DNA of 64,000 bases from Escherichia phage vB_EcoM_PHB13, in the sequence record MK573636; one strand, written 5' to 3'. Position numbers and translations under genes: made by a program. Under the pieces are notes generated by a model, which saw nothing but the letters and a program-made list of their open reading frames with translations, was not told where the DNA came from and did not search any database. Of the stretch, positions 7,773 through 21,520 are shown piece by piece. Numbering within the stretch: the first letter of the stretch is position 1; every line of letters begins with the position of its first letter.

Positions 7773-8429
7773 ATGAAATTGATTGCACTTTGTGGTAAAA
7801 AGCGCGTAGGAAAAGACACTGCCGCGTTAATCATTGATGGACACAGTTATCAACTGGCAGCACCGATCAAAGAAATCTTATGCGAATGCCAACCAGACTT
7901 AGGTCTGACTTATCTTGACTTTGACGGGTTGGGGCGTGACAGAGAAGCCGATCTAGGTATTGATACATACACAGCGCATAAGTGGTTTATTCAGTGTCTG
8001 CTTATGCTAGATTCGAAGTATGGCGGTAGTTCCTTTACTTGTGATAGTCTGGCTGAGATTTACAAGGTCGTTAATGAGATCGGCGAAAAACATAATAACG
8101 TCTGGTCTATTCGTCTTATGTTAACCACTCTCGGTACTGACATAATGGTTAACTTGATTAATCCGCTTTATTGGTGTAATCTCTTCGTGAATGAGTTTAT
8201 GAAGCGCAAAAGTGAAGAAGGGTATTTTGTAGTAGTTGATGTGCGTCAGCCTATTGAAATTGCTCTCATGCGTACTATGGGTGCTAAGGTGTTGCATATT
8301 CAGCGTGATACCGGTATTGTATCGACTCACTCCACCGAAAAAGGAATTTTGCCTATTGACGGTGAAACCATTATCATAAATAATGGTACATTAGAAGAAT
8401 TTGAAAGCGCGATTCTCGCGAACATTTAA
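7773..8429 (+). CDS. 1: deoxynucleoside monophosphate kinase gp1
   Basis: 218 aa; N-terminal P-loop (LCGKKRVGKDT) with the T4 gp1 pattern; synteny 3-1-57A. Confidence 0.8.
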   Translation: MKLIALCGKKRVGKDTAALIIDGHSYQLAAPIKEILCECQPDLGLTYLDFDGLGRDREADLGIDTYTAHKWFIQCLLMLDSKYGGSSFTCDSLAEIYKVVNEIGEKHNNVWSIRLMLTTLGTDIMVNLINPLYWCNLFVNEFMKRKSEEGYFVVVDVRQPIEIALMRTMGAKVLHIQRDTGIVSTHSTEKGILPIDGETIIINNGTLEEFESAILANI

Positions 8430-8461
8430 TAAAAAGTTATCAACAAGTAGGAGATGTGAAT

Positions 8462-8722
8462 ATGTCCAATCAGCATGAACAAATGATTAATGTCCTGAAA
8501 GTACGTCTGTTCGACACTCAAGAAAAAGCCGCATTCTTAGAAGGCCAACTGAAAGATCGTGAGCGTGTATTGATGGAACTGGTACGCATTCTGGGTATTC
8601 AGCCAGACGAAAACGGGACTGTTTCCCTTGATGCTATTGTCGAAGAAGTGAAAGCACTTCTCCCTAAAGACGAAGCAGCGGAAGACGCAGAAGAGGAAGT
8701 AGAACTGATCACGGAGGCTTGA
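8462..8722 (+). CDS. 57A: tail-fibre assembly chaperone gp57A
   Basis: About 86 aa, acidic coiled-coil protein after AGGAG SD; position after gene 1 as in T4. Confidence 0.65.
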   Translation: MSNQHEQMINVLKVRLFDTQEKAAFLEGQLKDRERVLMELVRILGIQPDENGTVSLDAIVEEVKALLPKDEAAEDAEEEVELITEA

Positions 8723-9189
8723 TTATGACCCCGTTTAGAGAATCCGTTAAAGGTACATATGCGGCGGTTAAATTCACTGAGGATACACTAGACCGCATTG
8801 AAAAATTGCAGGAGTTCTACGATCTGCCTAATGCCGTTCCTCGTGATAAACTGCATAGCACTATCTTATATTCTCGTGTCTATGTTCCGTTTATCCCAGA
8901 AGAAGGGGAGAAGTTCTTAGGCTCTCTATGCCATCTGAAAGTGTTTGAAACTCAATCCGGTACTAATGCTCTTGTGCTGGCATTTGAAAGCGACTACATG
9001 CAATTCAGACACGATATCGGCACTGCTTTAGGTGCGACGTGGGATTATCCTGAATATGTACCGCATATCACGCTTTCTTATGATGTTGGTGCGCGTAAAT
9101 TTGGCACTGACCTAGAGTTCGATTTAGAGATTGTCCGATCTCATGAGTATGTCGAAGATCTAGACCTGGAGTGGACGACCAAACTGTAA
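8719..9189 (+). CDS. 57B: gp57B-like protein, 2H phosphoesterase fold
   Basis: 156 aa with two H-x-T/S-x motifs (HSTI, HITL) characteristic of the 2H phosphoesterase superfamily; T4 57B position. Confidence 0.6.
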   Translation: MIMTPFRESVKGTYAAVKFTEDTLDRIEKLQEFYDLPNAVPRDKLHSTILYSRVYVPFIPEEGEKFLGSLCHLKVFETQSGTNALVLAFESDYMQFRHDIGTALGATWDYPEYVPHITLSYDVGARKFGTDLEFDLEIVRSHEYVEDLDLEWTTKL

Positions 9190-9196
9190 TTTTATA

Positions 9197-9226
9197 CCCC
9201 GAAAATTTTTCGGGGTTTTTTGTTTT
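9197..9226 (+). terminator. intrinsic terminator after 57B
   Basis: CCCCGAAAATTTTTCGGGG hairpin plus T-tract. Confidence 0.65.
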
Positions 9227-9232
9227 TAGTTG

Positions 9233-9261
9233 TTGACAACCATAAACGACTATAGCATAAT
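9233..9261 (+). promoter_or_regulatory. sigma70-type early promoter cassette (TTGACA-N17-CATAAT) with conserved leader
   Basis: TTGACA, 17-bp spacer, CATAAT, then leader ATCGAAACGAAACAC...AGGAGAATCAAA-ATG. Confidence 0.6.
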
Positions 9262-9298
9262 GCACATATCGAAACGAAACACACTTAGGAGAATCAAA

Positions 9299-9676
9299 AT
9301 GATGATGATGTTTAAAGATAAATTCGAATGTCACTACACCCGTAACTTTGACTTAGTATCCCGCTACTACATTCATAAAGAAACTGGTACGCAAGTAGTT
9401 CTTGAATCTCACAGCGAAGTAGGATTCGATTCAACAAAAGTAGCAATTAGTGCTCGCTTCTGGGATAACGGCAAATTTGCTTATATCGCTTGGAACGACG
9501 ACGAAAATGTAATTACAGTAGCTTTCGGTGATGACTACTACACTAAAAAGACTTTCGATAGTAAGCCATCAAATGAATACCTGAAAGCGTATGTGCAGCA
9601 CATGTTCCAACGTGTTCTGACCGGAATGGAAATCAATGTCATGAAAGACATTGTAGACGAAGTAAAATATTCTTAA
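9299..9676 (+). CDS. hypothetical early protein
   Basis: ATG 8 nt after the GGAG of the conserved leader; the ORF-track start at 9230 is a TTG inside the -35 element. Confidence 0.5.
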   Translation: MMMMFKDKFECHYTRNFDLVSRYYIHKETGTQVVLESHSEVGFDSTKVAISARFWDNGKFAYIAWNDDENVITVAFGDDYYTKKTFDSKPSNEYLKAYVQHMFQRVLTGMEINVMKDIVDEVKYS

Positions 9677-9682
9677 AAATAG

Positions 9683-9711
9683 TTGACAATATGAAACGGG
9701 GGTAGTAAGAT
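9683..9711 (+). promoter_or_regulatory. sigma70-type early promoter cassette
   Basis: TTGACA-N17-TAAGAT followed by the AAGGAGAATCAAA-ATG leader. Confidence 0.55.
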
Positions 9712-9742
9712 ACCACCACAAACAAACGAAAGGAGAATCAAA

Positions 9743-9901
9743 ATGAAATTTATCGGTAAAACTTTTATGTTCGTAGCTGGTACTCTGTTTACTGCAACTC
9801 TGTTAGCTGGTGGGTTGGATATCTTTACTACATTTGAAACTTTCGGGTATACTGTAGCATCGGGTGCTCTCTTCGGATTGGGTTTAGCGATTAGCAAATA
9901 A
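9743..9901 (+). CDS. small hydrophobic protein (52 aa)
   Basis: ORF below the ORF-track size cutoff, directly behind a promoter cassette with consensus SD; predicted single or double TM peptide. Confidence 0.4.
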   Translation: MKFIGKTFMFVAGTLFTATLLAGGLDIFTTFETFGYTVASGALFGLGLAISK

Positions 9902-9910
9902 GGTGATAAT

Positions 9911-10114
9911 ATGGAATTGGATATGGTTAAAGCAAAATTTATGGGTAAGGATAAGAGCGGTAAAACATTTGTTATTAATAGAACATTGTTTCGCTCTGAC
10001 CTTAAGTGGGTGACACAACAATTTGCGGAAGTCAACGAGGCAGTTGTGACATGCTTCGTTGATGATAAAAAAGTTTTTGAAATTGATCGTCGTGGGGTGT
10101 CTAATGATCACTAA
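9911..10114 (+). CDS. hypothetical protein
   Basis: 67 aa ORF with AAGGTG SD. Confidence 0.4.
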   Translation: MELDMVKAKFMGKDKSGKTFVINRTLFRSDLKWVTQQFAEVNEAVVTCFVDDKKVFEIDRRGVSNDH

Positions 10115-10301
10115 ACTGTTTAGCAATACTTTGTTTATGATTGCATTTGTTTTCTTTCTGTGTCTGATGATCGGTGTTGTTACAGTAGGTAGCTATTCCG
10201 GTGTTACCTTAGATGATTTTTGCAAACTTGTTATGGTCTCGTTTATACCTAGTATTCTGCTCGCTTTATGTGGTGCTTTTAAATGGCTTTGTACGCTATG
10301 A
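10104..10301 (+). CDS. small membrane protein
   Basis: Hydrophobic 65 aa from an ATG overlapping the previous stop (ATGATCACTAA). Confidence 0.4.
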   Translation: MITKLFSNTLFMIAFVFFLCLMIGVVTVGSYSGVTLDDFCKLVMVSFIPSILLALCGAFKWLCTL

Positions 10302-10389
10302 ACGAAATAGAACGAATGATGTTGATAGGTGGACCTGAGTTCACTAAATTTGATGCAATTCTTATTGCGTTGGGTTTTCTTATGATCTG

Positions 10390-10629
10390 TTGTATGGTGG
10401 CGCTATGAGTAGTATAAAATATTTCGCTTTCTTGTGCTTTATGATGTTCTTTACATTCTTAGCATGTGTTTTCTTTACCTGGCTTGCTCATGTTGATAAT
10501 GCAACCGGACCGTTTTACTTCTTCTGTGTATTGTCTGTGTTGACTGGTGCTCTTGTTACGTGGATGATTCGAGATTGTTACGGAATGTATAAGTTTGAAA
10601 AGACTCGACCGAAATGGGGCAAACGATGA
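10390..10629 (+). CDS. small membrane protein
   Basis: 79 aa with two hydrophobic segments; start uncertain. Confidence 0.4.
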   Translation: MYGGAMSSIKYFAFLCFMMFFTFLACVFFTWLAHVDNATGPFYFFCVLSVLTGALVTWMIRDCYGMYKFEKTRPKWGKR

Positions 10630-10808
10630 AATTATTTGCGTGGCTAATTATTTTAAATGTAATTGTTAAGACCTTTCTCGCTGGTCTGATGATGGCGCAT
10701 AGCACCGAACCAGAAGAAGCATTAACGTATTTTGTTGCTTATGTGTTGGGATTCTTGCTTACTGCGTGGATGTGTGATGAATATCGAAGAATTGAGGTAA
10801 AACCATGA
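10614..10808 (+). CDS. small membrane protein
   Basis: 64 aa hydrophobic ORF overlapping its neighbours. Confidence 0.4.
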   Translation: MGQTMKLFAWLIILNVIVKTFLAGLMMAHSTEPEEALTYFVAYVLGFLLTAWMCDEYRRIEVKP

Positions 10809-11023
10809 AGATGACTTTTTATATCTTAGCAAGTATCATGCTTGTGATCTCTTCTGCACTATTTGCATTTCTTACCGTTTGGGGGATCTGCACTGATGCG
10901 AAGCCGTGGGATATCATAGAAAATACGGTTATGTTCCTGATCAGTGTCATGTGTCTTTTTGATGCATTTAACTCTATCAAGGAAGAAGATCAAAAACGTC
11001 GCGAGAGAAAGCGATATAAATAA
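10805..11023 (+). CDS. small membrane protein
   Basis: 72 aa with two TM segments and a basic C-terminus. Confidence 0.4.
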   Translation: MKMTFYILASIMLVISSALFAFLTVWGICTDAKPWDIIENTVMFLISVMCLFDAFNSIKEEDQKRRERKRYK

Positions 11024-11029
11024 TAGTGA

Positions 11030-11199
11030 ACTAAAGACAGCGCGGTTAGAATGATTTGGACGTCACCTAGCCGCATTTATTGCAGCGTATGGGGTGATCC
11101 GGTACGCTAAAGCATTCACTTGCTAGGCCGCTAGCAGGTTGGAGACAAGGAAGATTCGCTACCTTCCCCTATAAGCCACTCTTCGGAGTGGCTTTTTTA
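11030..11199 (+). ncRNA. candidate structured small RNA
   Basis: About 170 bp without ORF; TATAAATA late-promoter-like motif at 11015-11022 upstream; four consecutive predicted hairpins then an intrinsic terminator. Syntenic with the T4 tRNA/stable-RNA region, but no tRNA T-loop consensus. Confidence 0.3.
11174..11199 (+). terminator. intrinsic terminator
   Basis: AAGCCACTCTTCGGAGTGGCTT hairpin followed by TTTTTT. Confidence 0.65.
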
Positions 11200-11226
11200 T
11201 TGCCTAAATTTTTTTGAAAAAAGTGG

Positions 11227-11255
11227 TTGACACCAGACCCAGCCTATAGCATAAT
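11227..11255 (+). promoter_or_regulatory. sigma70-type early promoter cassette
   Basis: TTGACA-N17-CATAAT followed by ACACCCATCGAAACGAAACAC...GGAGAATCAAATT-ATG. Confidence 0.6.
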
Positions 11256-11301
11256 ACACCCATCGAAACGAAACACACTTTCTTAAACGGAGAATCAAAT
11301 T

Positions 11302-11487
11302 ATGGCACGTCGCATCACTAAAGCACTGAAAGCAGTAAGCAAAGAAAACGTAGTAGCTATTCTGGTAATCTGGGGTTATAACGAAGAATCCGCTAAACAG
11401 AAAGTTGAAGCAGGGTTTGAACTGGCAGTAAAAGCAATGCCGAATGATGACTCTGTAGGGCTGGCAAACTATATTGCATATTTCTGA
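11302..11487 (+). CDS. hypothetical early protein
   Basis: 61 aa behind a promoter cassette. Confidence 0.45.
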   Translation: MARRITKALKAVSKENVVAILVIWGYNEESAKQKVEAGFELAVKAMPNDDSVGLANYIAYF

Positions 11488-11495
11488 TAAAAGTG

Positions 11496-11524
11496 TTGAC
11501 AGGGGAGGATAACTCCCCTACAAT
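11496..11524 (+). promoter_or_regulatory. sigma70-type early promoter cassette with spacer palindrome
   Basis: TTGACA, then AGGGGAG-GATAA-CTCCCCT inverted repeat filling the spacer, then TACAAT. Confidence 0.55.
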
Positions 11525-11553
11525 ACAACCATCAACGAAACGGGAGAATCAAA

Positions 11554-11781
11554 ATGATTAACTTTAAAGACGCAGCAAAAGAAATTATCGACTTTGAGCG
11601 TGAACTGTTTGAGATGGAACCGCAGATGGGTAAAATGGAACTGGCTAACCAGATCTGGGCTACTAGACTGAATCCGGCTGATCGCTTAGAGATCATGAAC
11701 ATTGTAGGCGCAAGCGACATGAAAGGTGGTGCTATGGCTAAACTCCGCAAATGCACCGCATACATTGCTGATCAACTGTAA
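11554..11781 (+). CDS. hypothetical early protein
   Basis: 75 aa behind a promoter cassette. Confidence 0.45.
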   Translation: MINFKDAAKEIIDFERELFEMEPQMGKMELANQIWATRLNPADRLEIMNIVGASDMKGGAMAKLRKCTAYIADQL

Positions 11782-11792
11782 GAGGGTATATT

Positions 11793-11981
11793 ATGGGGGA
11801 GAAACCATTAGTACAACTAAGAGTACGCTATAACCAGATTTTAGCATTACTTAAAGCTGAGGGTGTAGATCCATCGGACCGCGAGGCTGTAAAAGCGTGT
11901 CTATCTGATACGGTACAACCAAAACAGAACTATGCTTGTTATATGTACTTTCAAAATCGATTGAATAACGTTAAGTGTTGA
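11793..11981 (+). CDS. hypothetical protein
   Basis: 62 aa ORF. Confidence 0.35.
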   Translation: MGEKPLVQLRVRYNQILALLKAEGVDPSDREAVKACLSDTVQPKQNYACYMYFQNRLNNVKC

Positions 11982-11990
11982 GGTGATACT

Positions 11991-12179
11991 ATGGAAGACA
12001 AAATTGAACAATTACGCGAATCCGCTAAAGAGCATGGTATGAGCGAAGAGTTTGTAGAATGGTTTATTTCTAAAAAGGCTGATTCCTGCGGGTGCTTTAC
12101 CTTCATCACTATGTCCATTATGTGGGAAGGTTGGAAAGGTGCGGTAGAAACTGCCCTAGAAATTATGAAAAAAGACTAA
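11991..12179 (+). CDS. hypothetical protein
   Basis: 62 aa ORF with SD. Confidence 0.35.
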   Translation: MEDKIEQLRESAKEHGMSEEFVEWFISKKADSCGCFTFITMSIMWEGWKGAVETALEIMKKD

Positions 12180-12188
12180 AAAAAGTTG

Positions 12189-12217
12189 TTGACACACGAT
12201 AGGGTGTATAGCATAAT
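12189..12217 (+). promoter_or_regulatory. sigma70-type early promoter cassette
   Basis: TTGACA-N17-CATAAT followed by ACACCCATCGAAACGAAACAC...AAGGAG...ATG. Confidence 0.6.
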
Positions 12218-12259
12218 ACACCCATCGAAACGAAACACGAACTACTAAGGAGTATCAAA

Positions 12260-12586
12260 ATGAAACCAGTATCTGTTAAAGTTATCTTCTCTGAATCTTC
12301 TGTATTCGCTAACGCAAACGAAGTATTCCACTTCGAAGACTTCGAGCGTAAAGCACAGGACGCGGCAGCAAAAGCCTATGAAAGCGAATATGACAAAACT
12401 CAAATCGAGGTTACTTTCGAAAACGGCACTACTTACGCTTGCCGCCTTGACCTGGGTGATCGTCTGTCTGGCTTCCGTCACCATGTAGAGAAGACAATCG
12501 CTTTCTCTAAAACCGAAAAAGGAAAACACTACTTTTCTGTTTTCGGTACTGAAAATCTGGATTTCTTGAAAACTGTTTCTTTCTAA
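12260..12586 (+). CDS. hypothetical early protein
   Basis: 108 aa behind a promoter cassette. Confidence 0.45.
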   Translation: MKPVSVKVIFSESSVFANANEVFHFEDFERKAQDAAAKAYESEYDKTQIEVTFENGTTYACRLDLGDRLSGFRHHVEKTIAFSKTEKGKHYFSVFGTENLDFLKTVSF

Positions 12587-12594
12587 GGTATATT

Positions 12595-12777
12595 ATGAAA
12601 AAGATTAATTGGTTAGCGAACATAGGCGCGGTCTGCGCCTTTAACATCCTCGGATGGATAATGTTACATTTTGATGAGCGAGTTTCAAAATGTGAGGGTG
12701 TATTGATTCTCGGATCTGCTAGCATATTCATTATGCTGTATGCAATTGCTGTTGACTTAAGCCGCGATGGTTGTTAA
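12595..12777 (+). CDS. small membrane protein
   Basis: 60 aa, two hydrophobic segments. Confidence 0.4.
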   Translation: MKKINWLANIGAVCAFNILGWIMLHFDERVSKCEGVLILGSASIFIMLYAIAVDLSRDGC

Positions 12778-12976
12778 TATGACGCTCAAGAATATGTTTT
12801 TTAACTTCGTAGGTGCTTCCATTCTTTCAATGCTATATCTTGTGATTGTATGGATGGGCGACTATGAATTAACTAACGATGAAAATTTGACAGTGTTTAC
12901 TGTCTTGACGATGATCATTTACACTGTCTTTCTTGTCTTGGATTTTATTGTGTTTCTTTACAAAACGGTGACTTGA
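12767..12976 (+). CDS. small membrane protein
   Basis: 69 aa hydrophobic. Confidence 0.4.
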   Translation: MVVNMTLKNMFFNFVGASILSMLYLVIVWMGDYELTNDENLTVFTVLTMIIYTVFLVLDFIVFLYKTVT

Positions 12977-13173
12977 TGACGATTAGTAAAAATGATATTG
13001 GTTTTGTTGCGGGTATCGCTAGCGTCTTTACTGTTGTTATTTTGCTAATGCTTTTACCCGGTGTATTCTCTGACCAGATTGAATTGTATGTAGCTTTTAT
13101 CTGTTGCATTTATACTTGGTTTGCAATGTTTGTGATTAGTCTAATTATGCAATTCGTCGTTAACAAATTTTAG
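12973..13173 (+). CDS. small membrane protein
   Basis: 66 aa hydrophobic. Confidence 0.4.
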   Translation: MMTISKNDIGFVAGIASVFTVVILLMLLPGVFSDQIELYVAFICCIYTWFAMFVISLIMQFVVNKF

Positions 13174-13194
13174 ATTTAATGTGAGGATTATATT

Positions 13195-13515
13195 ATGAGT
13201 AAACTGTTTGAAACTCCGCGCGAAATTCTGATCGATAAACTGAAAGAACGTGGTTTTAAGATCAAAGATGCAACCAAATACAGCCGAATTGATGAAATTA
13301 AGTTGCATTCTCTTGATGAACTGGTAGAATATGTTGCGGCAGTTGCTGATCCGCAGTTTGATGTGATTGTAGGTGACGTTGAATATCTCGATAATGTATA
13401 TTCATTCTTCACTTATGGTAAAATTGTGTCGGTGAAAATTTCATTCTGTGAAAATGTGGAGGTAGTTGCTAGTGAACCAGAAGAACCAACTGACAACGGT
13501 CCTACGGCAGCGTAA
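13195..13515 (+). CDS. hypothetical protein
   Basis: 106 aa behind a GAGGATTATATT-ATG type initiation region. Confidence 0.45.
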   Translation: MSKLFETPREILIDKLKERGFKIKDATKYSRIDEIKLHSLDELVEYVAAVADPQFDVIVGDVEYLDNVYSFFTYGKIVSVKISFCENVEVVASEPEEPTDNGPTAA

Positions 13516-13786
13516 CAAGGAAGACCGCCTGATTTATGCGCTGGCGGTTATCCTAGAAAAAGAATTACCGGATCTTGAGGTAGTCTTTACTGACCGACCA
13601 GTAGGCCAACGTTACGGAGGGTATGATAGCCTAGTTTATCCTTCATATAGCCTTGAAATGTGGGTAGAAGATTTTAAAAACCTGGCTGATACATCTAAAC
13701 CGCTTTATCTATGGGATGTTGAGTATAATTGCGATCCTAACTGGCCTGGTATTAATGTCTATGCGTCTATGACTTTGAAGGTGTGA
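13466..13786 (+). CDS. hypothetical protein
   Basis: 106 aa ORF; start uncertain, overlaps the preceding gene. Confidence 0.35.
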   Translation: MLVNQKNQLTTVLRQRNKEDRLIYALAVILEKELPDLEVVFTDRPVGQRYGGYDSLVYPSYSLEMWVEDFKNLADTSKPLYLWDVEYNCDPNWPGINVYASMTLKV

Positions 13787-13788
13787 TA

Positions 13789-13947
13789 ATGATTGAACAA
13801 ATGTTAACTGCAATGGTAATGGCTTTCTGTATGGTTGTTGTTATGATTGCAATGATCCCTAAAGAGAGAATGAGTCTTCTTGTCGCTGTCTGTATGGGTG
13901 TTGTTTGCGGATGGTTTGGAATCGCTTTAGAACAAGCTCTACGTTGA
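13789..13947 (+). CDS. small membrane protein (52 aa)
   Basis: Sub-cutoff hydrophobic ORF starting 2 nt after the previous stop. Confidence 0.3.
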   Translation: MIEQMLTAMVMAFCMVVVMIAMIPKERMSLLVAVCMGVVCGWFGIALEQALR

Positions 13948-14170
13948 TTAACAAAGCGGGTAGGGGAATGTACTACCCGCACTAAATTAGCTAACTGGAG
14001 GGCTTTCTATGGCGTTTTATTATAGTATGCTTTGTGCTGGGGTTGTGCTTCTATACTGGCGTATTCTGTTTGATTGGCTGGATAGACGGCGGATTCTCTA
14101 ATATCATTTTGCTTGCTGGATCAATCGCCTCGTTTCTGTTGATATGGCTTTTTTCTTATTTGTTTGGTAA

Positions 14171-14362
14171 ATGGGATTTATTATGAACAAATATATGTTT
14201 TGGGCGACCATTGCCTATGTTGTGATTGCTGTAGTCTGGGGACTCTGTGTTATCGTCGCTTCCCTTATATGGTGGGAATCACTTGGCGCGGGTTGTCTTA
14301 TTAGCGGCGCATCATGTCTTATCACTGGCGTGATTGTTGGTTTTCTTATGTCGGAGGATTGA
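14171..14362 (+). CDS. small membrane protein, holin-like candidate
   Basis: 63 aa with two TM segments, upstream of the endolysin. Confidence 0.4.
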   Translation: MGFIMNKYMFWATIAYVVIAVVWGLCVIVASLIWWESLGAGCLISGASCLITGVIVGFLMSED

Positions 14363-14364
14363 CA

Positions 14365-14580
14365 ATGGTTTTCTTCGGTCTTATTATAATGGTGCTTAAT
14401 GTCATTTGTGGCGTTGCTATGTTAGCTATGGCCTTTACTGTTCCTATGTCTGTTGACAGCGCCGCGTCAGTAGGTGTGTTGGGAATTGTAAACCTGTTTA
14501 CTGCCATAGCATGTTGGATCACCGGACGCGATGAGGTAATGTATTACTTTTATAAACGTAAACAGAGAAAAGGAAAATAA
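14365..14580 (+). CDS. small membrane protein, holin-like candidate
   Basis: About 72 aa, two TM segments and a highly basic C-terminal tail (KRKQRKGK), the classic holin layout. Confidence 0.4.
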   Translation: MVFFGLIIMVLNVICGVAMLAMAFTVPMSVDSAASVGVLGIVNLFTAIACWITGRDEVMYYFYKRKQRKGK

Positions 14581-14581
14581 T

Positions 14582-14773
14582 ATGAGATTTGCATTTGGTT
14601 TTACCGTGATGTTGATTATTGCTCTGAGTATGTGTACCGGAATGCTTGTATTTGGCCTTGCAAACGGATTTGGCATTTATAATAATCCGTGGGTTGATTG
14701 GGGAATGGTTGTCGTTAATGCGATCCTGATTGGTGCTAATACAAGAACTCTATGCAGGATCGCCGGAATCTAA
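14582..14773 (+). CDS. small membrane protein
   Basis: 63 aa with two TM segments, directly upstream of the endolysin. Confidence 0.4.
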   Translation: MRFAFGFTVMLIIALSMCTGMLVFGLANGFGIYNNPWVDWGMVVVNAILIGANTRTLCRIAGI

Positions 14774-14801
14774 ATATTATCACTCACAAAGGGGGTGAAT
14801 A

Positions 14802-15191
14802 ATGTTTAAATTATCTCAAAGAAGCAAAGATCGGCTTGTTGGTGTACATCCAGACCTAGTAAAAGTCGTTCATCGTGCATTAGAACTGACTCCGGTCGAT
14901 TTTGGTATTACGGAAGGTGTGCGTAGTCTAGAAACGCAAAAGAAATATGTTGCGGAAGGTAAATCTAAGACTATGAAATCTCGTCATCTTCACGGTTTCG
15001 CGGTTGACGTTGTAGCGTATCCTAAAGATAAGGATACATGGAACATGAAATATTACCGCATGATCGCTGATGCATTTAAACAAGCTGGTCGAGAATTGGG
15101 TGTTCCTGTTGAATGGGGTGGGGATTGGTCTAGTTTCAAAGATGGTCCTCATCTACAATTGCCACACAGCAAATACCCAGATCCAAAATAA
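14802..15191 (+). CDS. L-alanyl-D-glutamate peptidase endolysin (peptidase M15 / VanY-like)
   Basis: 129 aa with zinc-binding SRHLHGFAVD motif and a second His (DGPHLQ) diagnostic of M15 peptidases such as the T5 endolysin; occupies the approximate position of T4 gene e but is not a T4-type lysozyme. Confidence 0.75.
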   Translation: MFKLSQRSKDRLVGVHPDLVKVVHRALELTPVDFGITEGVRSLETQKKYVAEGKSKTMKSRHLHGFAVDVVAYPKDKDTWNMKYYRMIADAFKQAGRELGVPVEWGGDWSSFKDGPHLQLPHSKYPDPK

Positions 15192-15253
15192 AATATTAAC
15201 CATCAACGGGGAGACAATCTAAGGATCTCTCCCCGTTCACTGGAGACTTTACC

Positions 15254-15739
15254 ATGAATATTGATGTAAAATTAGAAAGTAAAGATTTGATTTATGCTGC
15301 GTGTGTATCTGCCGTAGATGGCATCATAGAACGCCGTAAGCGACGTAATTTTGCTGATGACCTAGATTCCATCGTCTCAATCAATTTAGGCCGTCAAACA
15401 GGGCATACAGACGCTACAATAAAGTTATATGACCATTATACGCGAAAAGGCTATAGTGTCTTTATCGTTTCAACGACGAGGGAACATGCCAAAACGATCC
15501 GAGAACGCGGTCGCGGTGAAAATGTAAATATTTCAAATGTAGATTGTACGTCGATCCGAACTTTCCTGAATCCGATCACATGGCGAGGTCGTAGTCTTGA
15601 CAAAACAATTTTTATCCTAGATACTACCATGCGCGGATTTACTGACAGCGTATTGCAGTTTTTAGAAGTAAATCGACTTAGTGTTGGGATGGGTAATGTA
15701 GAAGACCAACCTATTTTCATTGGCTTAGGTATCAACTAA
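15254..15739 (+). CDS. hypothetical protein
   Basis: 161 aa ORF; no confident domain. Confidence 0.4.
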   Translation: MNIDVKLESKDLIYAACVSAVDGIIERRKRRNFADDLDSIVSINLGRQTGHTDATIKLYDHYTRKGYSVFIVSTTREHAKTIRERGRGENVNISNVDCTSIRTFLNPITWRGRSLDKTIFILDTTMRGFTDSVLQFLEVNRLSVGMGNVEDQPIFIGLGIN

Positions 15740-15874
15740 TGAAAAATAAAGATAGCGTAGCTCGTCGATTCCGTGCTACAATTAAAAAGAATCGTAAAGT
15801 CCAACCTGATAAACTCTATGGTGTTTTGGTTGGTAAAATTAATGACGAACGTCCTGATCTATAAGAGGTGAATT

Positions 15875-16291
15875 ATGGAATTTAAAGCAATTCAAATCAT
15901 GAAAGGTGAGCATAAAGGTACTATTATCGGTGGACACTTCGCGCCTATGATTCTGGTATCCGAACCGAAAGCACTGATCGGCGCTAAAGTAATTGTTAGT
16001 AAGACTTTCGCAGAAGACCATGCGATCACCGCAGAAGACGTCGATTCTCTGGCACTGCACACAACTAGCTTCCGTCCTGTTATTGTAGATAATGGTGCTC
16101 CTGTTGTCGAAGGTGGTCAGCATTTGAATGTTAACGTATTGTTACGAGAAATGTTGCTGGACGCTGTTGAACATCCTGAGAAGTACCCGCAGCTTACAAT
16201 TCGCGTTTCTGGTTACGCAGTGCGCTTCAATAGTCTGACTCCAGACCAGCAACGTGATGTTATCGCTCGTACCTTTACCGAATCTCTCTAA
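15875..16291 (+). CDS. autonomous glycyl radical cofactor (GrcA/YfiD-like)
   Basis: 138 aa; C-terminal ~60 aa ([59 protein letters not shown]) is nearly identical to the glycyl-radical domain of enterobacterial GrcA/PFL, including the RVSGY motif. Confidence 0.85.
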
Positions 16292-16302
16292 TTTTTCATC
16301 AA

Positions 16303-16334
16303 GCCAATCCGAAAAGGGTTGGCTTTTTCGTTTT
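16303..16334 (+). terminator. intrinsic terminator after the grcA-like gene
   Basis: GCCAATCCGAAAAGGGTTGGC hairpin plus T-tract. Confidence 0.6.
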
Positions 16335-16377
16335 ATGATGATATGATGCAATCTCTTAATCAACTGAGGGTTTAATT

Positions 16378-17076
16378 ATGCATACAATGGTTAAAATGGT
16401 CTTCGGATCTCACTTGTACGGCCTTGATACTGAAAATTCCGATAAAGATTATCGTGGTATCTTTGTTCCGACTGCGAAAGAAATTATCTTAGGATCTATG
16501 AAAGAACACTATGACCAAAGCACTAGCGGTCAAGGTATCAAGAACACCAAAGACGATATTGACGTTAATGTGTTCAGTCTAAAACGGTTTATCAATCTGG
16601 CATGTAAAGGCGATATTGGCGCTATTGACATGGTGCACGCGCCTAGTAACATGTTGATTGAATCCTCCAGAGAATGGGAATACATCCGAACACATCGCGA
16701 TAAATTCTATCATGTTGGTATGTGGGGTTTGTCTGGTTATCTCAAAAAGCAGGTAGCCAAATCTGAAAAGTATTTCAGTAACTGGAAAGATCTTTCTCAT
16801 GCTCTGCGTGTTGGTTATCAGCTACTTGAAATCTATCAGACAGGTGATCTACAATTCCCGCTCGCGCGACGTTCTTCTATTTTAGCGTGTAAATTGGGTG
16901 AGAGAACCTTTGATAATGTGCGGGAAGAATTGAAAGATCTCTACGAGCGTGTTAAACTCGCGCGTGAAGAGGCAAAGAAAAACGGTATGCCGGAAGAACC
17001 AGATGTTGACTTTTGGAAAGATTTATTAGAATATATTCATCTGACCGTTGTTCTGGAACACTATACCCGTGGTTAG
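16378..17076 (+). CDS. predicted nucleotidyltransferase (Pol-beta superfamily)
   Basis: 232 aa with N-terminal GSxxxGxDxxxSDxD motif (GSHLYGLDTENSDKDYRGIF), the nucleotidyltransferase-fold signature. Confidence 0.5.
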   Translation: MHTMVKMVFGSHLYGLDTENSDKDYRGIFVPTAKEIILGSMKEHYDQSTSGQGIKNTKDDIDVNVFSLKRFINLACKGDIGAIDMVHAPSNMLIESSREWEYIRTHRDKFYHVGMWGLSGYLKKQVAKSEKYFSNWKDLSHALRVGYQLLEIYQTGDLQFPLARRSSILACKLGERTFDNVREELKDLYERVKLAREEAKKNGMPEEPDVDFWKDLLEYIHLTVVLEHYTRG

Positions 17077-17097
17077 TTAATATAGGAGATTAAGAAA

Positions 17098-17292
17098 ATG
17101 CAAGTTTATACCAATAGCAATAAAGGACAAGATATTACGCCCGGAAAGATGTATGATTTTACCCCGGCACGAGACGACGAACATCCACCGACTATCGGGT
17201 ATATTGAAGATGATGTGGGGTTTCGTATTACGATCCTTCTTGATGGTGGATGTTCTCATCTTCGCGGTGATAAATGGGAGTTAGTACCATGA
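17098..17292 (+). CDS. small paralogous protein A
   Basis: 64 aa; shares K(M/L)Y.FTP...GYI.DD.G...GCSHL...W motifs with the next two ORFs. Confidence 0.45.
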   Translation: MQVYTNSNKGQDITPGKMYDFTPARDDEHPPTIGYIEDDVGFRITILLDGGCSHLRGDKWELVP

Positions 17293-17534
17293 TGTATGTG
17301 ATGACACCTTATAGTAGTAGATCGTACATCACCCCAAATAAACTGTATAAGTTTACGCCAGATGAAAGAATGTCTACCTACGGTTACATCAAAGATGATA
17401 AAGGATACAAACTTTTTATTTCTCTGAAAAGCTGTGCATACTTAGACGACCGTCCGTGGACACTGATCGAAGAACCAAAACAACCTGAGAATAAAGGTCT
17501 TTGGAATGTGCTAAAAAAATTCTTGAAAAAGTAG
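17289..17534 (+). CDS. small paralogous protein B
   Basis: About 81 aa paralog of 17098; ATG after GGAG SD. Confidence 0.45.
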   Translation: MMYVMTPYSSRSYITPNKLYKFTPDERMSTYGYIKDDKGYKLFISLKSCAYLDDRPWTLIEEPKQPENKGLWNVLKKFLKK

Positions 17535-17563
17535 TTGACAGCATGAAACGGGGGTAGTAATAT
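17535..17563 (+). promoter_or_regulatory. sigma70-type early promoter cassette with spacer palindrome
   Basis: TTGACA...GGGGG-TAGTAATATA-CCCCC...; the -10 (TAATAT) lies in the loop of the palindrome; leader ATCGAAACAAAGGAG. Confidence 0.55.
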
Positions 17564-17591
17564 ACCCCCATCGAAACAAAGGAGTATTAAA

Positions 17592-17927
17592 ATGAGTGTT
17601 AAAGAAGTATTTGTTTATACTGACTATGAAGGGTGTGCCTATCTCACTGCTGGAAAACTTTACCGTTGTGAGATTATTCATGGTACGTTAGGTCGAATTA
17701 TGTGCGATCCTATTACAAAATTGTGGAAAAATAATCCTAGTGAGCGAGAAACTCTTATTAACCTAGATCCAGACGGTTGTTCACATTTGGACTATAGAAA
17801 ATGGCATATAGTTACACATGATGCTTATGGTATTCATCTTGCTACTAAAGAATTAACTATTGACAAGTTCAAGTTTAAAGAAATCCCGTTTGTATACTGG
17901 CTTCGCAATTTGTTTAAGAAAGGATAA
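17592..17927 (+). CDS. small paralogous protein C
   Basis: 111 aa, third member of the family (KLYRCE...DPDGCSHLDYRKW). Confidence 0.45.
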   Translation: MSVKEVFVYTDYEGCAYLTAGKLYRCEIIHGTLGRIMCDPITKLWKNNPSERETLINLDPDGCSHLDYRKWHIVTHDAYGIHLATKELTIDKFKFKEIPFVYWLRNLFKKG

Positions 17928-17931
17928 TAAA

Positions 17932-18354
17932 ATGGAAACAATTAACGTACATGTTCGCCGTAGTAAGCTGCGTAGATTCTTCGAAACCGAAATGCGCAAA
18001 ACCAATGCGCAGATCAAAGAAAAGTGCTTGAATGATGGTTACGGTGAGTATATTTTCATTCGCTTTAGTCCGCATATGATCGACCGTCTAACCGATCGTC
18101 ATATCGATGAACATAAGACAATGGAACTATTCAATAAGGTAGAAACTCGTTTGCCGGAGATCTTCGACTTCCTGAGAATGGAAGACCGACCTAATCGATT
18201 AGAAATTACTGACGGTAACATGTGGATCGGAATGACAGTAGATCTAATCGAAGAGGGTAAACCGTATCACGGTCTATGCTGCCGAATGATTATAGAGAAT
18301 CCAAAACGACTTGCGGGTAAAATGTCGGCTGTTGTTTTGAGGGTAGACCAATAA
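17932..18354 (+). CDS. hypothetical protein; possible RegB-like endoribonuclease by position and size
   Basis: 141 aa from the ATG at 17932 (METINVHVRRSKLRRFFETEMRK...RLEITDGNMW...). Located between the e-equivalent region and tk, where T4 carries regB (153 aa). Assignment is by synteny only. Confidence 0.3.
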   Translation: METINVHVRRSKLRRFFETEMRKTNAQIKEKCLNDGYGEYIFIRFSPHMIDRLTDRHIDEHKTMELFNKVETRLPEIFDFLRMEDRPNRLEITDGNMWIGMTVDLIEEGKPYHGLCCRMIIENPKRLAGKMSAVVLRVDQ

Positions 18355-18376
18355 TGGAAATTGGTTAAATTAATGC

Positions 18377-18405
18377 TTGACTTTCTGGTGATAGGGCTAT
18401 ATTAT
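18377..18405 (+). promoter_or_regulatory. sigma70-type promoter upstream of the transglycosylase gene
   Basis: AATGCTTGACT ... TATATTAT; -35 overlaps a TGCTT MotA-box-like motif. Confidence 0.4.
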
Positions 18406-18439
18406 GGAATCAGAAAGTTAAGCCAAACAGGAGAAATTA

Positions 18440-19030
18440 ATGTTAAAAGTTCTAAAAGCGATAGTATTGAGTCTGTCACTAGCCGTTGGTGCTACACACG
18501 CATCGACTAGCGCACCGATCAAAAAAGCGCCGATAGACAACTTTACAGCACACCAACTAGATAATTTACATTTCGCCTATCAATACGGCGAACAATTCGA
18601 GAAAAGCGGTAAGTTGAAAAAGCACCATCCGAATATTCGCTATAACGGAAAGGGTTTAGGCCACATCCTGGCGGGTATCGCATGGCAAGAATCAAGCGCG
18701 GGTGCAAACTTAGCACCAAAGAAAAATCATCATGCTTATGGATTATTTCAAAATTACCTTAAAACGGTGAAAGCGAAAAATGCAAAGCGCGGTGTTAAAA
18801 TGAGTGATCGCCAGACTATCAACTTTATAATGAATCGCGAGGTTTCTGCATTCTACGCGATGGATGAGTTAGCATACTGGCTGGATGTTCGAAACGGTAA
18901 TATCCGACTCGCGCTAGCTTCTTACAATGCAGGATGGAACTATAAAGCCGGTTTAGGTTATGCTGATGATGTACTAAAAAAGGCTAACCATCTAAAGAGT
19001 AAAGGCATTCTTAAAACTAAACGCTATTGA
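18440..19030 (+). CDS. secreted lytic transglycosylase-like protein (SLT domain)
   Basis: 196 aa; N-terminal signal peptide (MLKVLKAIVLSLSLAVGATHA); SLT signature AWQESS...GLFQ...YNAG. Confidence 0.6.
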   Translation: MLKVLKAIVLSLSLAVGATHASTSAPIKKAPIDNFTAHQLDNLHFAYQYGEQFEKSGKLKKHHPNIRYNGKGLGHILAGIAWQESSAGANLAPKKNHHAYGLFQNYLKTVKAKNAKRGVKMSDRQTINFIMNREVSAFYAMDELAYWLDVRNGNIRLALASYNAGWNYKAGLGYADDVLKKANHLKSKGILKTKRY

Positions 19031-19037
19031 GGAATGT

Positions 19038-19397
19038 ATGAAAAAGTTGACAATAATTGCTATGATTGCTATGATGTTCTCTGCTGGTGCGCTTGCTAGT
19101 AATGAGCGACCTTATCCAAAGTTCGAATACAAAGGATTTGAGATCAACAAAAAGATCATTAAAACCTTCTGTGATGATGATAACATGTGTAGCGATTTTA
19201 TAGCACTTGAACTCGACGAAGCCTATAAACAAGGTCGAGATGAAAAACGAAAAAATCGAGCGTGGGATCTGAGTATTGCCAGCTTTGCTAAAACAAAACG
19301 CAATCTGTGTGATACTGCCCCTGATAAGCAATTATGCTTTGCCTATCGAGACACACTGTTAAGCCGTTTTATGGCTGGGTTGTCTTCCCGTGACTAA
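19038..19397 (+). CDS. secreted hypothetical protein
   Basis: 119 aa with cleavable signal peptide (MKKLTIIAMIAMMFSAGALA) and four Cys; immediately downstream of the SLT gene. Confidence 0.45.
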   Translation: MKKLTIIAMIAMMFSAGALASNERPYPKFEYKGFEINKKIIKTFCDDDNMCSDFIALELDEAYKQGRDEKRKNRAWDLSIASFAKTKRNLCDTAPDKQLCFAYRDTLLSRFMAGLSSRD

Positions 19398-19412
19398 TTA
19401 GAGGTTTATATT

Positions 19413-19868
19413 ATGATTATTGATACTGTAAAGGGCGATCTCATCGCCCTGTTTAAACAAGGAAACGGTCATTTAATTCATGGTTGTAATTGTTTTCATA
19501 CTATGGGCGCTGGTATTGCTGCAAAGATCGCGAAAGAGTTCCCACAAGCGTTAGAGATTGACAAGCAAACTTCTCGCGGTAAGGTAGAAAAGCTGGGTGG
19601 GTTTAGTGTCTGGACGCATCAAGTTAATGGTTATAATTGGTGCGGGGTGAATCTCTATACCCAATTCCGACCGGGTCCAAATGCTGAATATGGTGCTATC
19701 CTGAAAGGATTTGAGACTATCAATGATGTTTTTGAAGGTGCTATACAGCCTTTCTATATTCCTAAAATCGGTTGCGGTATCGGTGGCCTTGAGTGGGAAT
19801 GTGTAGAAGAGATCATTAATATTGCTACTCCAGACATTAACATTGTGGTGGTTGAATATGACAAATAA
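19413..19868 (+). CDS. macro-domain protein (putative ADP-ribose binding / ADP-ribosylhydrolase)
   Basis: 151 aa; Gly-rich motifs (HGCNCFHTMGAGIAAKIA and IPKIGCGIGGL) in macrodomain-like arrangement. Confidence 0.5.
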   Translation: MIIDTVKGDLIALFKQGNGHLIHGCNCFHTMGAGIAAKIAKEFPQALEIDKQTSRGKVEKLGGFSVWTHQVNGYNWCGVNLYTQFRPGPNAEYGAILKGFETINDVFEGAIQPFYIPKIGCGIGGLEWECVEEIINIATPDINIVVVEYDK

Positions 19869-20052
19869 AAATGATCTATATTCCGGTGATTGGGTGAAAC
19901 GTCAGTCTGTAGAAAACGTAACTTGTTTTCGTTGTTTCACTGAATACAATATAAAAACCGCTCCTGTTAGTGTTCCAAAGACAGACGGGTATTATATTAA
20001 AGAACCGCATTGCCCTAAATGTAAATGTCGATTATATTGGAGTCATCTATGA
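19858..20052 (+). CDS. Cys-rich zinc-ribbon-like small protein
   Basis: About 64 aa with CxxC...CPKCKC motifs. Confidence 0.4.
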   Translation: MTNKNDLYSGDWVKRQSVENVTCFRCFTEYNIKTAPVSVPKTDGYYIKEPHCPKCKCRLYWSHL

Positions 20053-20267
20053 ATAAGCCTAATACCGCTCACATGAAGGAAAACTGCCGTTGTGGTAGAT
20101 GTGGTTGGCCTATCATCTTCACTTGCTGTAACGACGATATGCAGCGTTTACCGTGGGGAATGTGGGATTGGTGGATGTATTGCAGCAATAAAGGTTGCGA
20201 CCATCATGAAGGTGAAGGAGTCTTTCAGGAAACACCTGATTGGGTGGAGGTGATAGAAAATGCTTGA
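20049..20267 (+). CDS. Cys-rich small protein
   Basis: About 72 aa with CRCGRCG and CCND...CSNKGC motifs. Confidence 0.4.
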   Translation: MNKPNTAHMKENCRCGRCGWPIIFTCCNDDMQRLPWGMWDWWMYCSNKGCDHHEGEGVFQETPDWVEVIENA

Positions 20268-20553
20268 GACTATCATTAACCTTGTTATGTGGACTTTCAA
20301 TTTCGTTATTGTTATTATGGCGGGTATTGAGATTGTCAAGCAGTATCTGTTACAATCCAGAAATAAACATGTTGTAATTGATATGGACTCTCAAGGAAAT
20401 AAGCTGATCCGGTTAGAAGATGGTCGGGAATATTGGGTAGGTTATCCAAAGACACTACGCGGATTTATCTTTGCTATGGGTGTTTGCTTCTTTTTCCTTT
20501 GTATCTGGACTTATATCGGTTTAGGTCTTGTTGGATTTTTGGAGATTAATTAA
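20260..20553 (+). CDS. small membrane protein
   Basis: 97 aa with two TM segments; start overlaps the upstream stop, and its end overlaps the tk start (ATGGCG at 20553). Confidence 0.4.
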   Translation: MLETIINLVMWTFNFVIVIMAGIEIVKQYLLQSRNKHVVIDMDSQGNKLIRLEDGREYWVGYPKTLRGFIFAMGVCFFFLCIWTYIGLGLVGFLEIN

Positions 20554-21149
20554 TGGCGCAATTATATTTCTACTATGCATCTATGAACGCTGGCAAATCA
20601 ACTTCTCTGTTACAAAGTGCTTATAACTATACCGAACGTGATATGCGAGTATTAATTCTTAAGCCAGCGATTGATAATCGAGATTCAGAAAGTGAAGTCG
20701 TTTCCCGAATTGGCCTAAGTGTCCCAGCGATCACCTTCACTAAATCTGATGATCTTTTCGATTTGGTTTATCGTGAATCGTTAGGTAAGCGTAGACCGGA
20801 TCGATGGCGTCCAGATGCAGTTTTTGTAGACGAAGCCCAATTTATGACTAAAGAGCATGTTTTAGGCTTGTGTGCGCTTGTTGATGATGCTAATATCCCT
20901 GTACTGTGCTATGGCCTTCGCACTGACTTTCAGGGCAATCTATTTGAAGGATCTGCGGCATTAATGGCATTTGCTGATAAACTGGTCGAAATGAAGGGTA
21001 TTTGTCATTGTGGCAAGAAAGCGACTATGGTCCTTCGCGTAGATAAAGATGGTAATGTTATTCGCGATGGTGCTCAAATAGAAGTTGGTGCAGAGGATAA
21101 ATATGTTTCTGTGTGTCGTAAACATTTTATTGATGGTACTACCAAATAA
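20553..21149 (+). CDS. tk: thymidine kinase
   Basis: 198 aa; P-loop (ASMNAGKST) and C-terminal zinc ribbon (CHCGKKAT...CRKHF) of type II thymidine kinases; T4 tk position. Confidence 0.9.
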   Translation: MAQLYFYYASMNAGKSTSLLQSAYNYTERDMRVLILKPAIDNRDSESEVVSRIGLSVPAITFTKSDDLFDLVYRESLGKRRPDRWRPDAVFVDEAQFMTKEHVLGLCALVDDANIPVLCYGLRTDFQGNLFEGSAALMAFADKLVEMKGICHCGKKATMVLRVDKDGNVIRDGAQIEVGAEDKYVSVCRKHFIDGTTK

Positions 21150-21176
21150 GAGTTAATCATAAATAAAGCCCCGGAT

Positions 21177-21184
21177 TATAAATA
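21177..21184 (+). promoter_or_regulatory. T4-type late promoter motif TATAAATA upstream of the rI-like gene
   Basis: Exact TATAAATA about 34 bp upstream of the ATG at 21218. Confidence 0.45.
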
Positions 21185-21217
21185 TAACTGAATATTTTCA
21201 ATCTGGGGGAATGACTT

Positions 21218-21520
21218 ATGTCATTTATTCGTAAAACTCTAACAGCGGCAATATGCTTGACTGCGGTCGGAAGTGTCAGTGCTGATCAATATGATCCAAC
21301 TGGTGACTTTACTGATTATTTCGACGGCGCAATGATAGTATATGTAAACAAAATATCTCCTTCCATTGAAACCAGCCAGAAATTTCATGCCCATATTATG
21401 AAGATGTATGCTCGTAGTAAATGTATGGATTCTAGGCAGTGTTTTATTATGGGGGGATATGCCGCACAACAATTTGTTCTGTTGCATAATATGGAGAATC
21501 GAGAACATGAAATTCAGTGA
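21218..21520 (+). CDS. rI: lysis inhibition regulator RI-like periplasmic protein (antiholin)
   Basis: 100 aa with N-terminal signal-anchor sequence and a two-Cys C-terminal domain; directly after tk, as rI is in T4 (97 aa). Confidence 0.5.
   Translation: MSFIRKTLTAAICLTAVGSVSADQYDPTGDFTDYFDGAMIVYVNKISPSIETSQKFHAHIMKMYARSKCMDSRQCFIMGGYAAQQFVLLHNMENREHEIQ

Follow-up and report, generated by a model that had tools for sequence, protein, structure and literature searches.

The question raised by a run of very small hydrophobic open reading frames (ORFs) in Escherichia phage vB_EcoM_PHB13 (sequence record MK573636), analysed here in a window of 64,000 nucleotides, is whether these ORFs represent genuine membrane-protein genes and what role such genes might play for the phage. 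Few components of phage genomes are as poorly understood as small membrane proteins, and the handful that have been solved (T4 Imm, HK97 gp15, holins and antiholins) govern decisive stages of infection, genome entry and lysis among them. The ORFs are, with little room for doubt, real inner-membrane microprotein genes with predicted early transcription, and among the conceivable roles exclusion or counter-defence represents the best-supported guess, followed by modulation of host physiology and then by lysis timing. The window derives from a Krischvirus (RB49-like T4-type phage) and is ~97% identical to published genomes, while the 6.5 kb around the cluster share 96-97% identity with 58 Krischvirus records, including RB49, Phi1, JSE, GEC-3S and Sf20; relative to the + strand of the window, the RB49 record runs in reverse complement. 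GenBank phage records were used for the relatives, and a scan of IMG/VR around ORF113c yielded one locus only.

Nine such ORFs had been singled out from the sequence alone, in a cluster at 9743-13947 between 57B and the lysis region. All nine are found on the + strand and correspond to RB49 ORF124c, 122c, 120c, 119c, 118c, 112c, 111c, 110c and 107c, which are carried as hypothetical proteins in the RB49 annotation, and 11 genes of the cluster are already labelled 'putative membrane protein' in the W115 record. The cluster itself is real, but its end had been set too early and its gene count too low: in full it comprises 14-15 genes in three blocks at 9743-14773, within a region of ~5 kb, and ORF121c, ORF105c, ORF104c, ORF103c and a frameshifted ORF106c had been overlooked. 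A Kyte-Doolittle scan likewise returns 15 small hydrophobic ORFs in three blocks, all on the + strand: block A (9743-11023) with six transmembrane (TM) genes plus the soluble dmd, block B (12595-13173) with three TM genes, and block C (13789-14773) with five, one of which (ORF106c) is frameshifted in the window, ending 28 nt 5' of an M15 endolysin gene. The RB49 record shows the same series, namely ORF124c, dmd, ORF122c-ORF118c, ORF112c-ORF110c and ORF107c-ORF103c, then the endolysin ORF102c. Five of the nine start positions originally given were retained, while the other four represent upstream alternatives, the likely starts being 10405 rather than 10390, 10626 rather than 10614, 12779 rather than 12767 and 12976 rather than 12973; the choice rests on orthologue annotation and on ATGA/TGATG coupling. 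The location next to the lysis region was right insofar as the endolysin is concerned, but the canonical holin, antiholin and spanins are encoded elsewhere in the genome. The original observation was correct and understated.

The strand is T-rich, with an AT skew down to -0.43, and a T-rich coding strand could yield spurious hydrophobic ORFs that are not genes. One ORF of this kind does exist, in that a hydrophobic 46-codon ORF at 8239-8379, seemingly a further member of the cluster, lies out of frame inside the dNMP (deoxynucleoside monophosphate) kinase gene and is demonstrably an artefact, and several genome annotations leave out some of the cluster ORFs. Against such an explanation for the cluster as a whole, 206 synonymous and 230 non-synonymous changes were counted in the 13 intact TM genes across 18 genomes and contigs, giving a pooled omega (the ratio of non-synonymous to synonymous substitution rates) of ~0.31 (P=6e-32 against neutrality), whereas the same DNA read in two control frames gave values of 0.98 and 1.62 and the soluble neighbours a value of 0.17. 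The TM genes are therefore real, with somewhat relaxed constraint, which is weakest in ORF122c (0.6) and ORF110c type 1 (0.7). T occupies codon position 2 in 46% of codons in the TM genes compared to 30% in the soluble neighbours, and this enrichment is confined to that position of the annotated frame. The genes in a block are tiled back to back, overlapping at ATGA or standing 1-2 nt apart; they are intact in nearly all genomes, the reading frames stay open even in variants 71-87% identical at the protein level, and the gene order is kept in all 58 Krischvirus records as well as in two metagenomic contigs from more divergent lineages. Clustering is also pronounced, as these 22 consecutive genes contain 13 of the 20 novel ORFs with a TM prediction in the whole of RB49 (hypergeometric P ~5e-12), and of the 19 small hydrophobic ORFs on the + strand of the window, 12 map to 8-16 kb. 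The frame-controlled selection test effectively refutes the spurious-ORF explanation, the probability of which is negligible, and the selection, codon-position and TM evidence together confirm the small membrane-protein genes.

Nearly all of the products are predicted to be two-helix hairpins in the inner membrane with both termini in the cytoplasm (N-in/C-in) and short, mostly acidic periplasmic loops. On Kyte-Doolittle hydropathy the proteins comprise 52-74 aa with two TM helices, the exception being ORF121c, with 36 aa and one TM helix, which agrees with the TMHMM table of Nolan et al. (2006), where two TM helices are given for 12 of these proteins and one for ORF121c. The charge distribution (positive-inside rule) points to the N-in/C-in topology, the loops span 6-18 residues, and the proteins consist almost wholly of TM helix without a soluble domain, although basic C-terminal tails occur on ORF120c, ORF118c and ORF104c. 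The AlphaFold2 model of ORF110c is a hairpin with helices at residues 5-31 and 37-64 (predicted local distance difference test score 86), and a fold search with this model returned only non-significant generic hairpins (E>=7). The TM microproteins encoded at 9743-14773 contain more cysteine (3.5% versus 1.2%) and methionine (7.6% versus 3.1%) than their soluble neighbours, and in several of them a cysteine stands just after TM2.

Each protein constitutes its own small PHROG (numbers 15016-21837), none of the 14 has a match above cut-off in Pfam, NCBIfam or PADLOC, and an all-versus-all blastp of the 14 proteins showed no significant paralogy after composition correction. In tblastn of all 14 proteins against 50,697 phage genomes, matches were confined to the 58 Krischvirus records. 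ORF120c retrieved only clusters at >=99% identity from 5.8 billion proteins, while ORF104c, run exhaustively with HMMER against 1.84 billion representatives, matched a single variant (79% identical) besides a chimeric fragment and a spurious repeat protein, and the profile search with ORF110c returned Krischvirus-type variants only. The proteins thus appear to be independent, mutually unrelated, Krischvirus-specific ORFan microproteins of 36-74 aa, where 'ORFan' excludes only homologues above ~40% identity, because database-scale tblastn failed to connect the two types of ORF110c, which are 33% identical, and for TM proteins of 60 aa sensitivity is lost below ~40% identity.

The cluster lies in the hyperplastic region, 3' of predicted sigma70 early promoters, in keeping with its original assignment to a T4-type early region. 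Sigma70-type promoters stand 5' of ORF125c, ORF124c, ORF117c, ORF116c and ORF113c, and the promoters found by scanning agree with the early promoters Pe:60694, 60244, 58699, 58430 and 57746 predicted by Nolan et al. with a hidden Markov model; promoters and terminators alike also agree with those in the GEC-3S annotation. A PeSL-type element at 9196-9261 (+ strand), 5' of ORF125c, combines a terminator hairpin (9196-9216; free energy (dG) -12.8 kcal/mol) with a sigma70-like promoter (9233-9261; Pe:60694), and both a terminator and a promoter are annotated there in GEC-3S. The predicted early promoter of block A (ORF124c, dmd and ORF122c-ORF118c) is located at 9683-9711 (+ strand; TTGACA-17-TAAGAT, 10/12 matches; Pe:60244) and is likewise annotated in GEC-3S. 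The block is closed by a further PeSL-type element at 11173-11255 (+ strand), consisting of a terminator (11173-11194; dG -14.8 kcal/mol, z -5.1) and the ORF117c promoter (11227-11255); the element is annotated in GEC-3S and matches a terminator and Pe:58699 of Nolan et al. The sequence TATAAATA occurs once in the region, over the ORF118c stop codon. The promoter and terminator scan returned another element at 11496-11524. ORF113c and everything downstream of it are preceded by a predicted early promoter at 12189-12217 (+ strand; TTGACA-17-CATAAT, 11/12 matches; Pe:57746), the unit of which includes ORF113c, block B, ORF109c/108c, block C and the endolysin. No other promoter, early or late, is predicted from there through the endolysin, the predictions of Nolan et al. 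showing none of the early class between 57696 and 52389 and none of the late class between 48756 and 64518 (RB49 coordinates). Because of this promoter and terminator layout, block A is predicted to form one early operon together with dmd, and the stretch from block B to the endolysin would be governed by the ORF113c promoter.

Two RNA elements are predicted within and at the end of block C, and an Rfam scan of 8000-15500 gave no match. The gap between ORF107c and ORF106c contains a stem-loop at 13956-13980 (+ strand; dG -15.6 kcal/mol, z -3.7) with a conserved 8-bp stem and a hypervariable loop, and as it is not followed by a T-run it may serve as an attenuator or as a processing or stability element. 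A 14-bp hairpin at 14772-14807 (+ strand; dG -10.7 kcal/mol, z -4.7) covers the Shine-Dalgarno (SD) sequence and the AUG of the endolysin gene, and the 51-nt stretch that holds it is invariant in 15 genomes. Since the endolysin start is masked in this conserved hairpin, read-through early transcripts may express block C without the endolysin, a situation resembling that of T4 gene e, which is translationally masked on early transcripts.

Block A opens with ORF124c (9743-9901, + strand as are all genes described below), which encodes a weakly hydrophobic, Gly/Ala/Thr-rich protein of 52 aa with two TM helices and a PHROG of its own (16462); it is intact in every genome examined, with an omega of 0.17-0.24. 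The soluble dmd (9911-10114; Pfam Dmd, E=7.6e-16) codes for an antitoxin against RnlA/LsoA. Across the Krischvirus genomes compared, ten non-synonymous changes and one synonymous change were counted in this gene, a small site count, and MIZ5, PTE-Eco09 and Cognac have shortened or frameshifted copies, a pattern that suggests relaxed or diversifying selection. ORF122c (10104-10301; 65 aa, two TM helices) overlaps the end of dmd by 11 nt and is the most variable gene of the block (omega ~0.6). ORF121c (10298-10408) overlaps its neighbours at ATGA on both ends and encodes 36 aa, the only TM helix being C-terminal; this is taken as the real form, because in 7 of 14 genomes a stop codon interrupts the longer form starting at 10283 (41 aa). 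The remaining genes of the block are ORF120c (10405-10629; 74 aa, two TM helices, basic C-terminal tail; omega 0.08-0.11), ORF119c (10626-10808; 60 aa, two TM helices with an acidic loop; omega 0.36) and ORF118c (10805-11023; 72 aa, two TM helices, an MKM start and a highly charged, basic C-terminal tail; omega 0.14-0.17).

Block B comprises ORF112c (12595-12777; 60 aa, two TM helices; omega ~0.4), ORF111c (12779-12976; 65 aa, two TM helices) and the dimorphic locus ORF110c, present in the window as type 1 (12976-13173; 65 aa, two TM helices; the protein modelled with AlphaFold2). Frameshifts interrupt ORF111c in W115 and PTE-Eco09, and its JK32 copy lacks part of the N-terminus. A second type of ORF110c, of the same length and topology and ~33% identical to type 1, is found in 11 of the 58 records (for example at L006:3872-4066 and L018:7831-8031), and these genomes are without ORF111c while being otherwise ~95% identical. 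TM2 is largely invariant across both types, TM1 and the loop being divergent. In block C, ORF107c (13789-13947; 52 aa, two TM helices; omega 0.12-0.26) is disrupted in pEJ01, and a duplicated 26-aa N-terminal fragment of it is found in Skers (L005:5832-5936). The ORF106c remnant (14009-14186) derives from a gene for a two-TM protein of 62 aa, which most relatives carry intact; alignment to RB49, GEC-3S and W115 shows an 11-bp deletion that shifts the frame, so that the window carries either a natural pseudogene or a sequencing error. The gene is independently damaged in ECD7 and Cognac, and JK32 contains a partial tandem duplication of it (L019:9064-9518). The duplications in JK32 and Skers indicate ongoing recombination inside block C. 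The block is completed by ORF105c (14183-14362; 59 aa, two TM helices, the second rich in Gly, Ala, Ser and Cys; omega 0.21-0.24), ORF104c (14365-14580; 71 aa, two TM helices; omega 0.13-0.18), the basic C-terminal tail of which (YKRKQRKGK) is invariant even in the 79%-identical variant, and ORF103c (14582-14773; 63 aa, two TM helices by TMHMM; omega 0.24-0.26). The genes are under purifying selection, yet each appears dispensable.

The closest known counterparts in architecture are the PeSL ORFan cassettes described in RB49 and phi1 by Arbiol et al. (2010), of which this locus, in the same phage group, constitutes an instance. As in those cassettes, ORFans stand behind sigma70-like early promoters and stem-loop terminators (at 9196-9261, 9683-9711, 11173-11255, 11496-11524 and 12189-12217), and insertion, deletion and replacement occur between close relatives, as illustrated by the replacement of ORF111c/110c, the loss of ORF106c and ORF107c and the partial duplications. 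In contrast to those cassettes, the genes in blocks A and C are translationally coupled and not each flanked by PeSL elements, and the concentration of membrane proteins at this locus is not discussed in the PeSL papers. In Gualtarvirus (Providencia phage PSTRCR_127; L023:2640-4997), the nearest sister lineage, five membrane proteins are encoded near together upstream of a homologous M15 endolysin. They are larger than the Krischvirus proteins (86-176 aa, 2-4 TM helices), non-homologous to them and, unlike them, paralogous, with four of the five sharing a C-terminal tail Y[IV]K[HQ]C(RG), the mark of an undescribed paralogous family. Because Gualtarvirus has its own non-homologous run in the same region, membrane-protein clusters recur in this hyperplastic region and are not peculiar to Krischvirus. 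Both the genes and the TM predictions for them became public in 2003-2006, and the biology of the PeSL hyperplastic region has also been described; the feature is therefore already known, though uncharacterised. Taken alone, annotated hypothetical proteins with TM predictions published in 2006 are an ordinary finding. Roughly two-thirds of the membrane ORFans predicted for an RB49-type phage are concentrated at this locus, and its natural knock-outs, allele swaps and counter-defence neighbours make it a compact and tractable place to seek intramembrane exclusion or anti-defence mechanisms.

That exclusion or counter-defence is the main role of the hairpins is proposed tentatively. Under this proposal they would insert into the host inner membrane within minutes of infection and each would act singly, through helix-helix binding to a particular membrane-embedded partner, probably with no one target common to all. 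The likeliest purpose would be competition and defence at the envelope, either by blocking the genome entry of superinfecting phages, as T4 Imm does via the tape-measure protein, or by neutralising membrane-acting abortive-infection or other defence effectors of the host. T4 Imm is a 9.3-kDa inner-membrane protein reported in a preprint to bind the tape-measure protein and so to block genome translocation. It is a small, early protein of the inner membrane, as the proteins considered here are predicted to be, and its gene is likewise accessory, being non-essential and placed where the T4-type genome is plastic; its action by direct protein contact in or at the membrane is what is proposed by analogy for the hairpins. 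The RB49 annotation contains no imm, sp, ac or rIII, and the absence of imm and sp from it would leave an exclusion role unfilled. The setting may also be one of counter-defence, because two neighbours, 57B and Dmd, are counter-defence genes; ORF113c, with its LPD25 domain, is counted in the same setting. The left-flanking 57B (8719-9189; Pfam Acb1, E=1.5e-51), elsewhere annotated as 'conserved hypothetical' or 'RNA ligase', belongs to the Acb1 anti-CBASS (cyclic-oligonucleotide-based anti-phage signalling system) nuclease family. In the T4 dmd-tifA-adfA 'anti-TA (toxin-antitoxin) island' (Srikant et al. 2022), dmd and tifA belong to one operon with adfA close by, and these partners proved to be counter-defence factors. 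Here too dmd shares an early promoter, by prediction, with small accessory genes, but TifA and AdfA are soluble, whereas the partners in Krischvirus are membrane hairpins without similarity to either. The near-invariance of ORF110c TM2 and the invariance of the cytoplasmic tail of ORF104c, while the rest diverges, is the kind of constraint that a binding partner could impose. Anatomy and mechanism, taken jointly as a single statement, are plausible rather than probable. It is rather unlikely that the three blocks form a membrane-targeted exclusion and counter-defence island, with ~14 unrelated hairpins each countering a different membrane-embedded threat and turned over by PeSL-mediated cassette exchange beside Acb1 and Dmd; the candidate threats would include the TM effectors of CBASS, retron and Rex-type systems, the membrane sensors of Zorya and Kiwa, and the DNA-entry channel of rival phages.

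Several observations weigh against an exclusion or counter-defence role. The argument from context is guilt by association, and among the 14 proteins no match to Imm, Spackle or any other exclusion or defence family was found by sequence or profile (Pfam even at E<=1, NCBIfam, PHROG and PADLOC). The topology differs from that of Imm, which, as the preprint describes it, has 83-94 aa arranged in four helices, with helices 2-4 as the core, and an N-terminus in the periplasm, while the proteins here are N-in hairpins of 52-74 aa. They are also unlike T4 Spackle (Sp), a secreted periplasmic protein whose signal peptide is cleavable and whose soluble domain inhibits lysozyme, in being nearly all TM at 36-74 aa. 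Co-variation of the ORF110c alleles with the tape-measure protein gp29, as an Imm-type mode of action would predict, was looked for and rejected, since the two partitions do not coincide. The version of gp29 in PTE-Eco09, JK32, AV108 and Whisky is only 54-66% identical to that of RB49 (RB49 107252-110043; L020:43053-45844), and this set meets the type-2 ORF110c set only in Whisky; in the type-2 genomes MIZ4/5, JSE, phiS, Makalu and SSG23, gp29 matches its RB49 counterpart at 95.8-99% identity. The ORF110c dimorphism is therefore unlikely to track the tape-measure protein, a comparison that applies to ORF110c alone, the other 13 proteins being too invariant. In the same four phages the tube cap gp48 is 75-78% identical to that of RB49, and the dimorphism of gp29 and gp48 looks like a swapped tail-hub module. 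The predicted co-transcription of block C with the endolysin would fit a lysis role too. A literature search found no Krischvirus expression or exclusion work specific to these proteins, nor any experimental work on the genes, which bears out their original description as poorly characterised.

The hairpins might instead be host-takeover effectors that inhibit or re-tune inner-membrane machinery, such as that of cell division, peptidoglycan and lipid synthesis, transport, or respiration and the proton-motive force, so as to optimise the infected cell. Early expression, as predicted here, would suit such effectors, and in a staphylococcal phage a small membrane protein made early is reported to stop cell division and peptidoglycan synthesis (PMC11237401). 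Nolan et al. noted that some novel ORFs were scarce in shotgun plasmid libraries, suggesting toxicity, and the Gly/Ala/Ser-rich helices of ORF124c and ORF105c would suit oligomeric channels. Host machinery is, however, highly conserved, so that effectors acting on it would be expected beyond one genus and would not be expected to be lost or swapped among 95%-identical isolates. There is, moreover, no similarity in Pfam or NCBIfam to known small membrane toxins or regulators, including type I toxin-like families (Hok, TisB, Ldr, Ibs and similar), and host takeover is considered a doubtful explanation.

A part in lysis timing, with block C (ORF107c-ORF103c) and possibly ORF118c and ORF120c providing holin-, antiholin- or pinholin-like partners of the M15 endolysin, is improbable. 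This endolysin, ORF102c (14802-15191; PHROG 465, E=9e-69; Pfam Peptidase_M15_4), is of the L-alanyl-D-glutamate peptidase type and forms the right flank, with only the 28-nt gap and no promoter separating it from block C. The generic features of class II holins and pinholins (such as phage 21 S21-68), namely 60-75 aa, two TM helices, an N-in/C-in topology and a charged C-terminal tail, recur in ORF104c, which is one gene removed from the endolysin, in ORF118c, with its MKM start, and in ORF120c, the tails of all three being basic; block C also has the endolysin gene as its neighbour. Holin matches in Pfam are sub-threshold (E 0.029-0.9; 10-15 bits compared to cut-offs of 27-28 bits), so that family membership is not found in Pfam or NCBIfam. 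The homologous endolysin of Sashavirus sits in a cassette of holin, endolysin, a two-TM-domain protein and spanin, but the Krischvirus proteins show no similarity to the proteins of that cassette, and Slopekvirus encodes the same endolysin without small TM genes upstream; the proposition that block C travels with the endolysin was rejected on these two comparisons. Krischviruses furthermore have a T4-type lysis system elsewhere, RB49 encoding holin t, the antiholin rI, rI.-1, rIIA/B and the spanins pseT.2/pseT.3. The unit has a predicted early promoter only and no late one, and an early holin would harm the phage. The conserved hairpin over the endolysin SD and AUG would uncouple its translation from that of block C, and ORF106c and ORF107c are broken in natural isolates.

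Between blocks A and B, the soluble middle block at 11302-11981 shows horizontal exchange. ORF117c (Pfam DUF7421), within this stretch, shares ~77% DNA identity with siphophages of ~50 kb (tiwna, JMPW2, pSf-1 and others), and ORF116c-115c share 78% identity with phage GaoY1-9D. ORF113c, which heads the downstream unit, encodes an LPD25 domain protein (Pfam). Directly 3' of the endolysin, a gene for an AP2-domain homing endonuclease, absent from the window, is present in KMB43 (L008:6366-6941), PTE-Eco09 (L009:6349-6924) and JK32 (L019:10569-10836).

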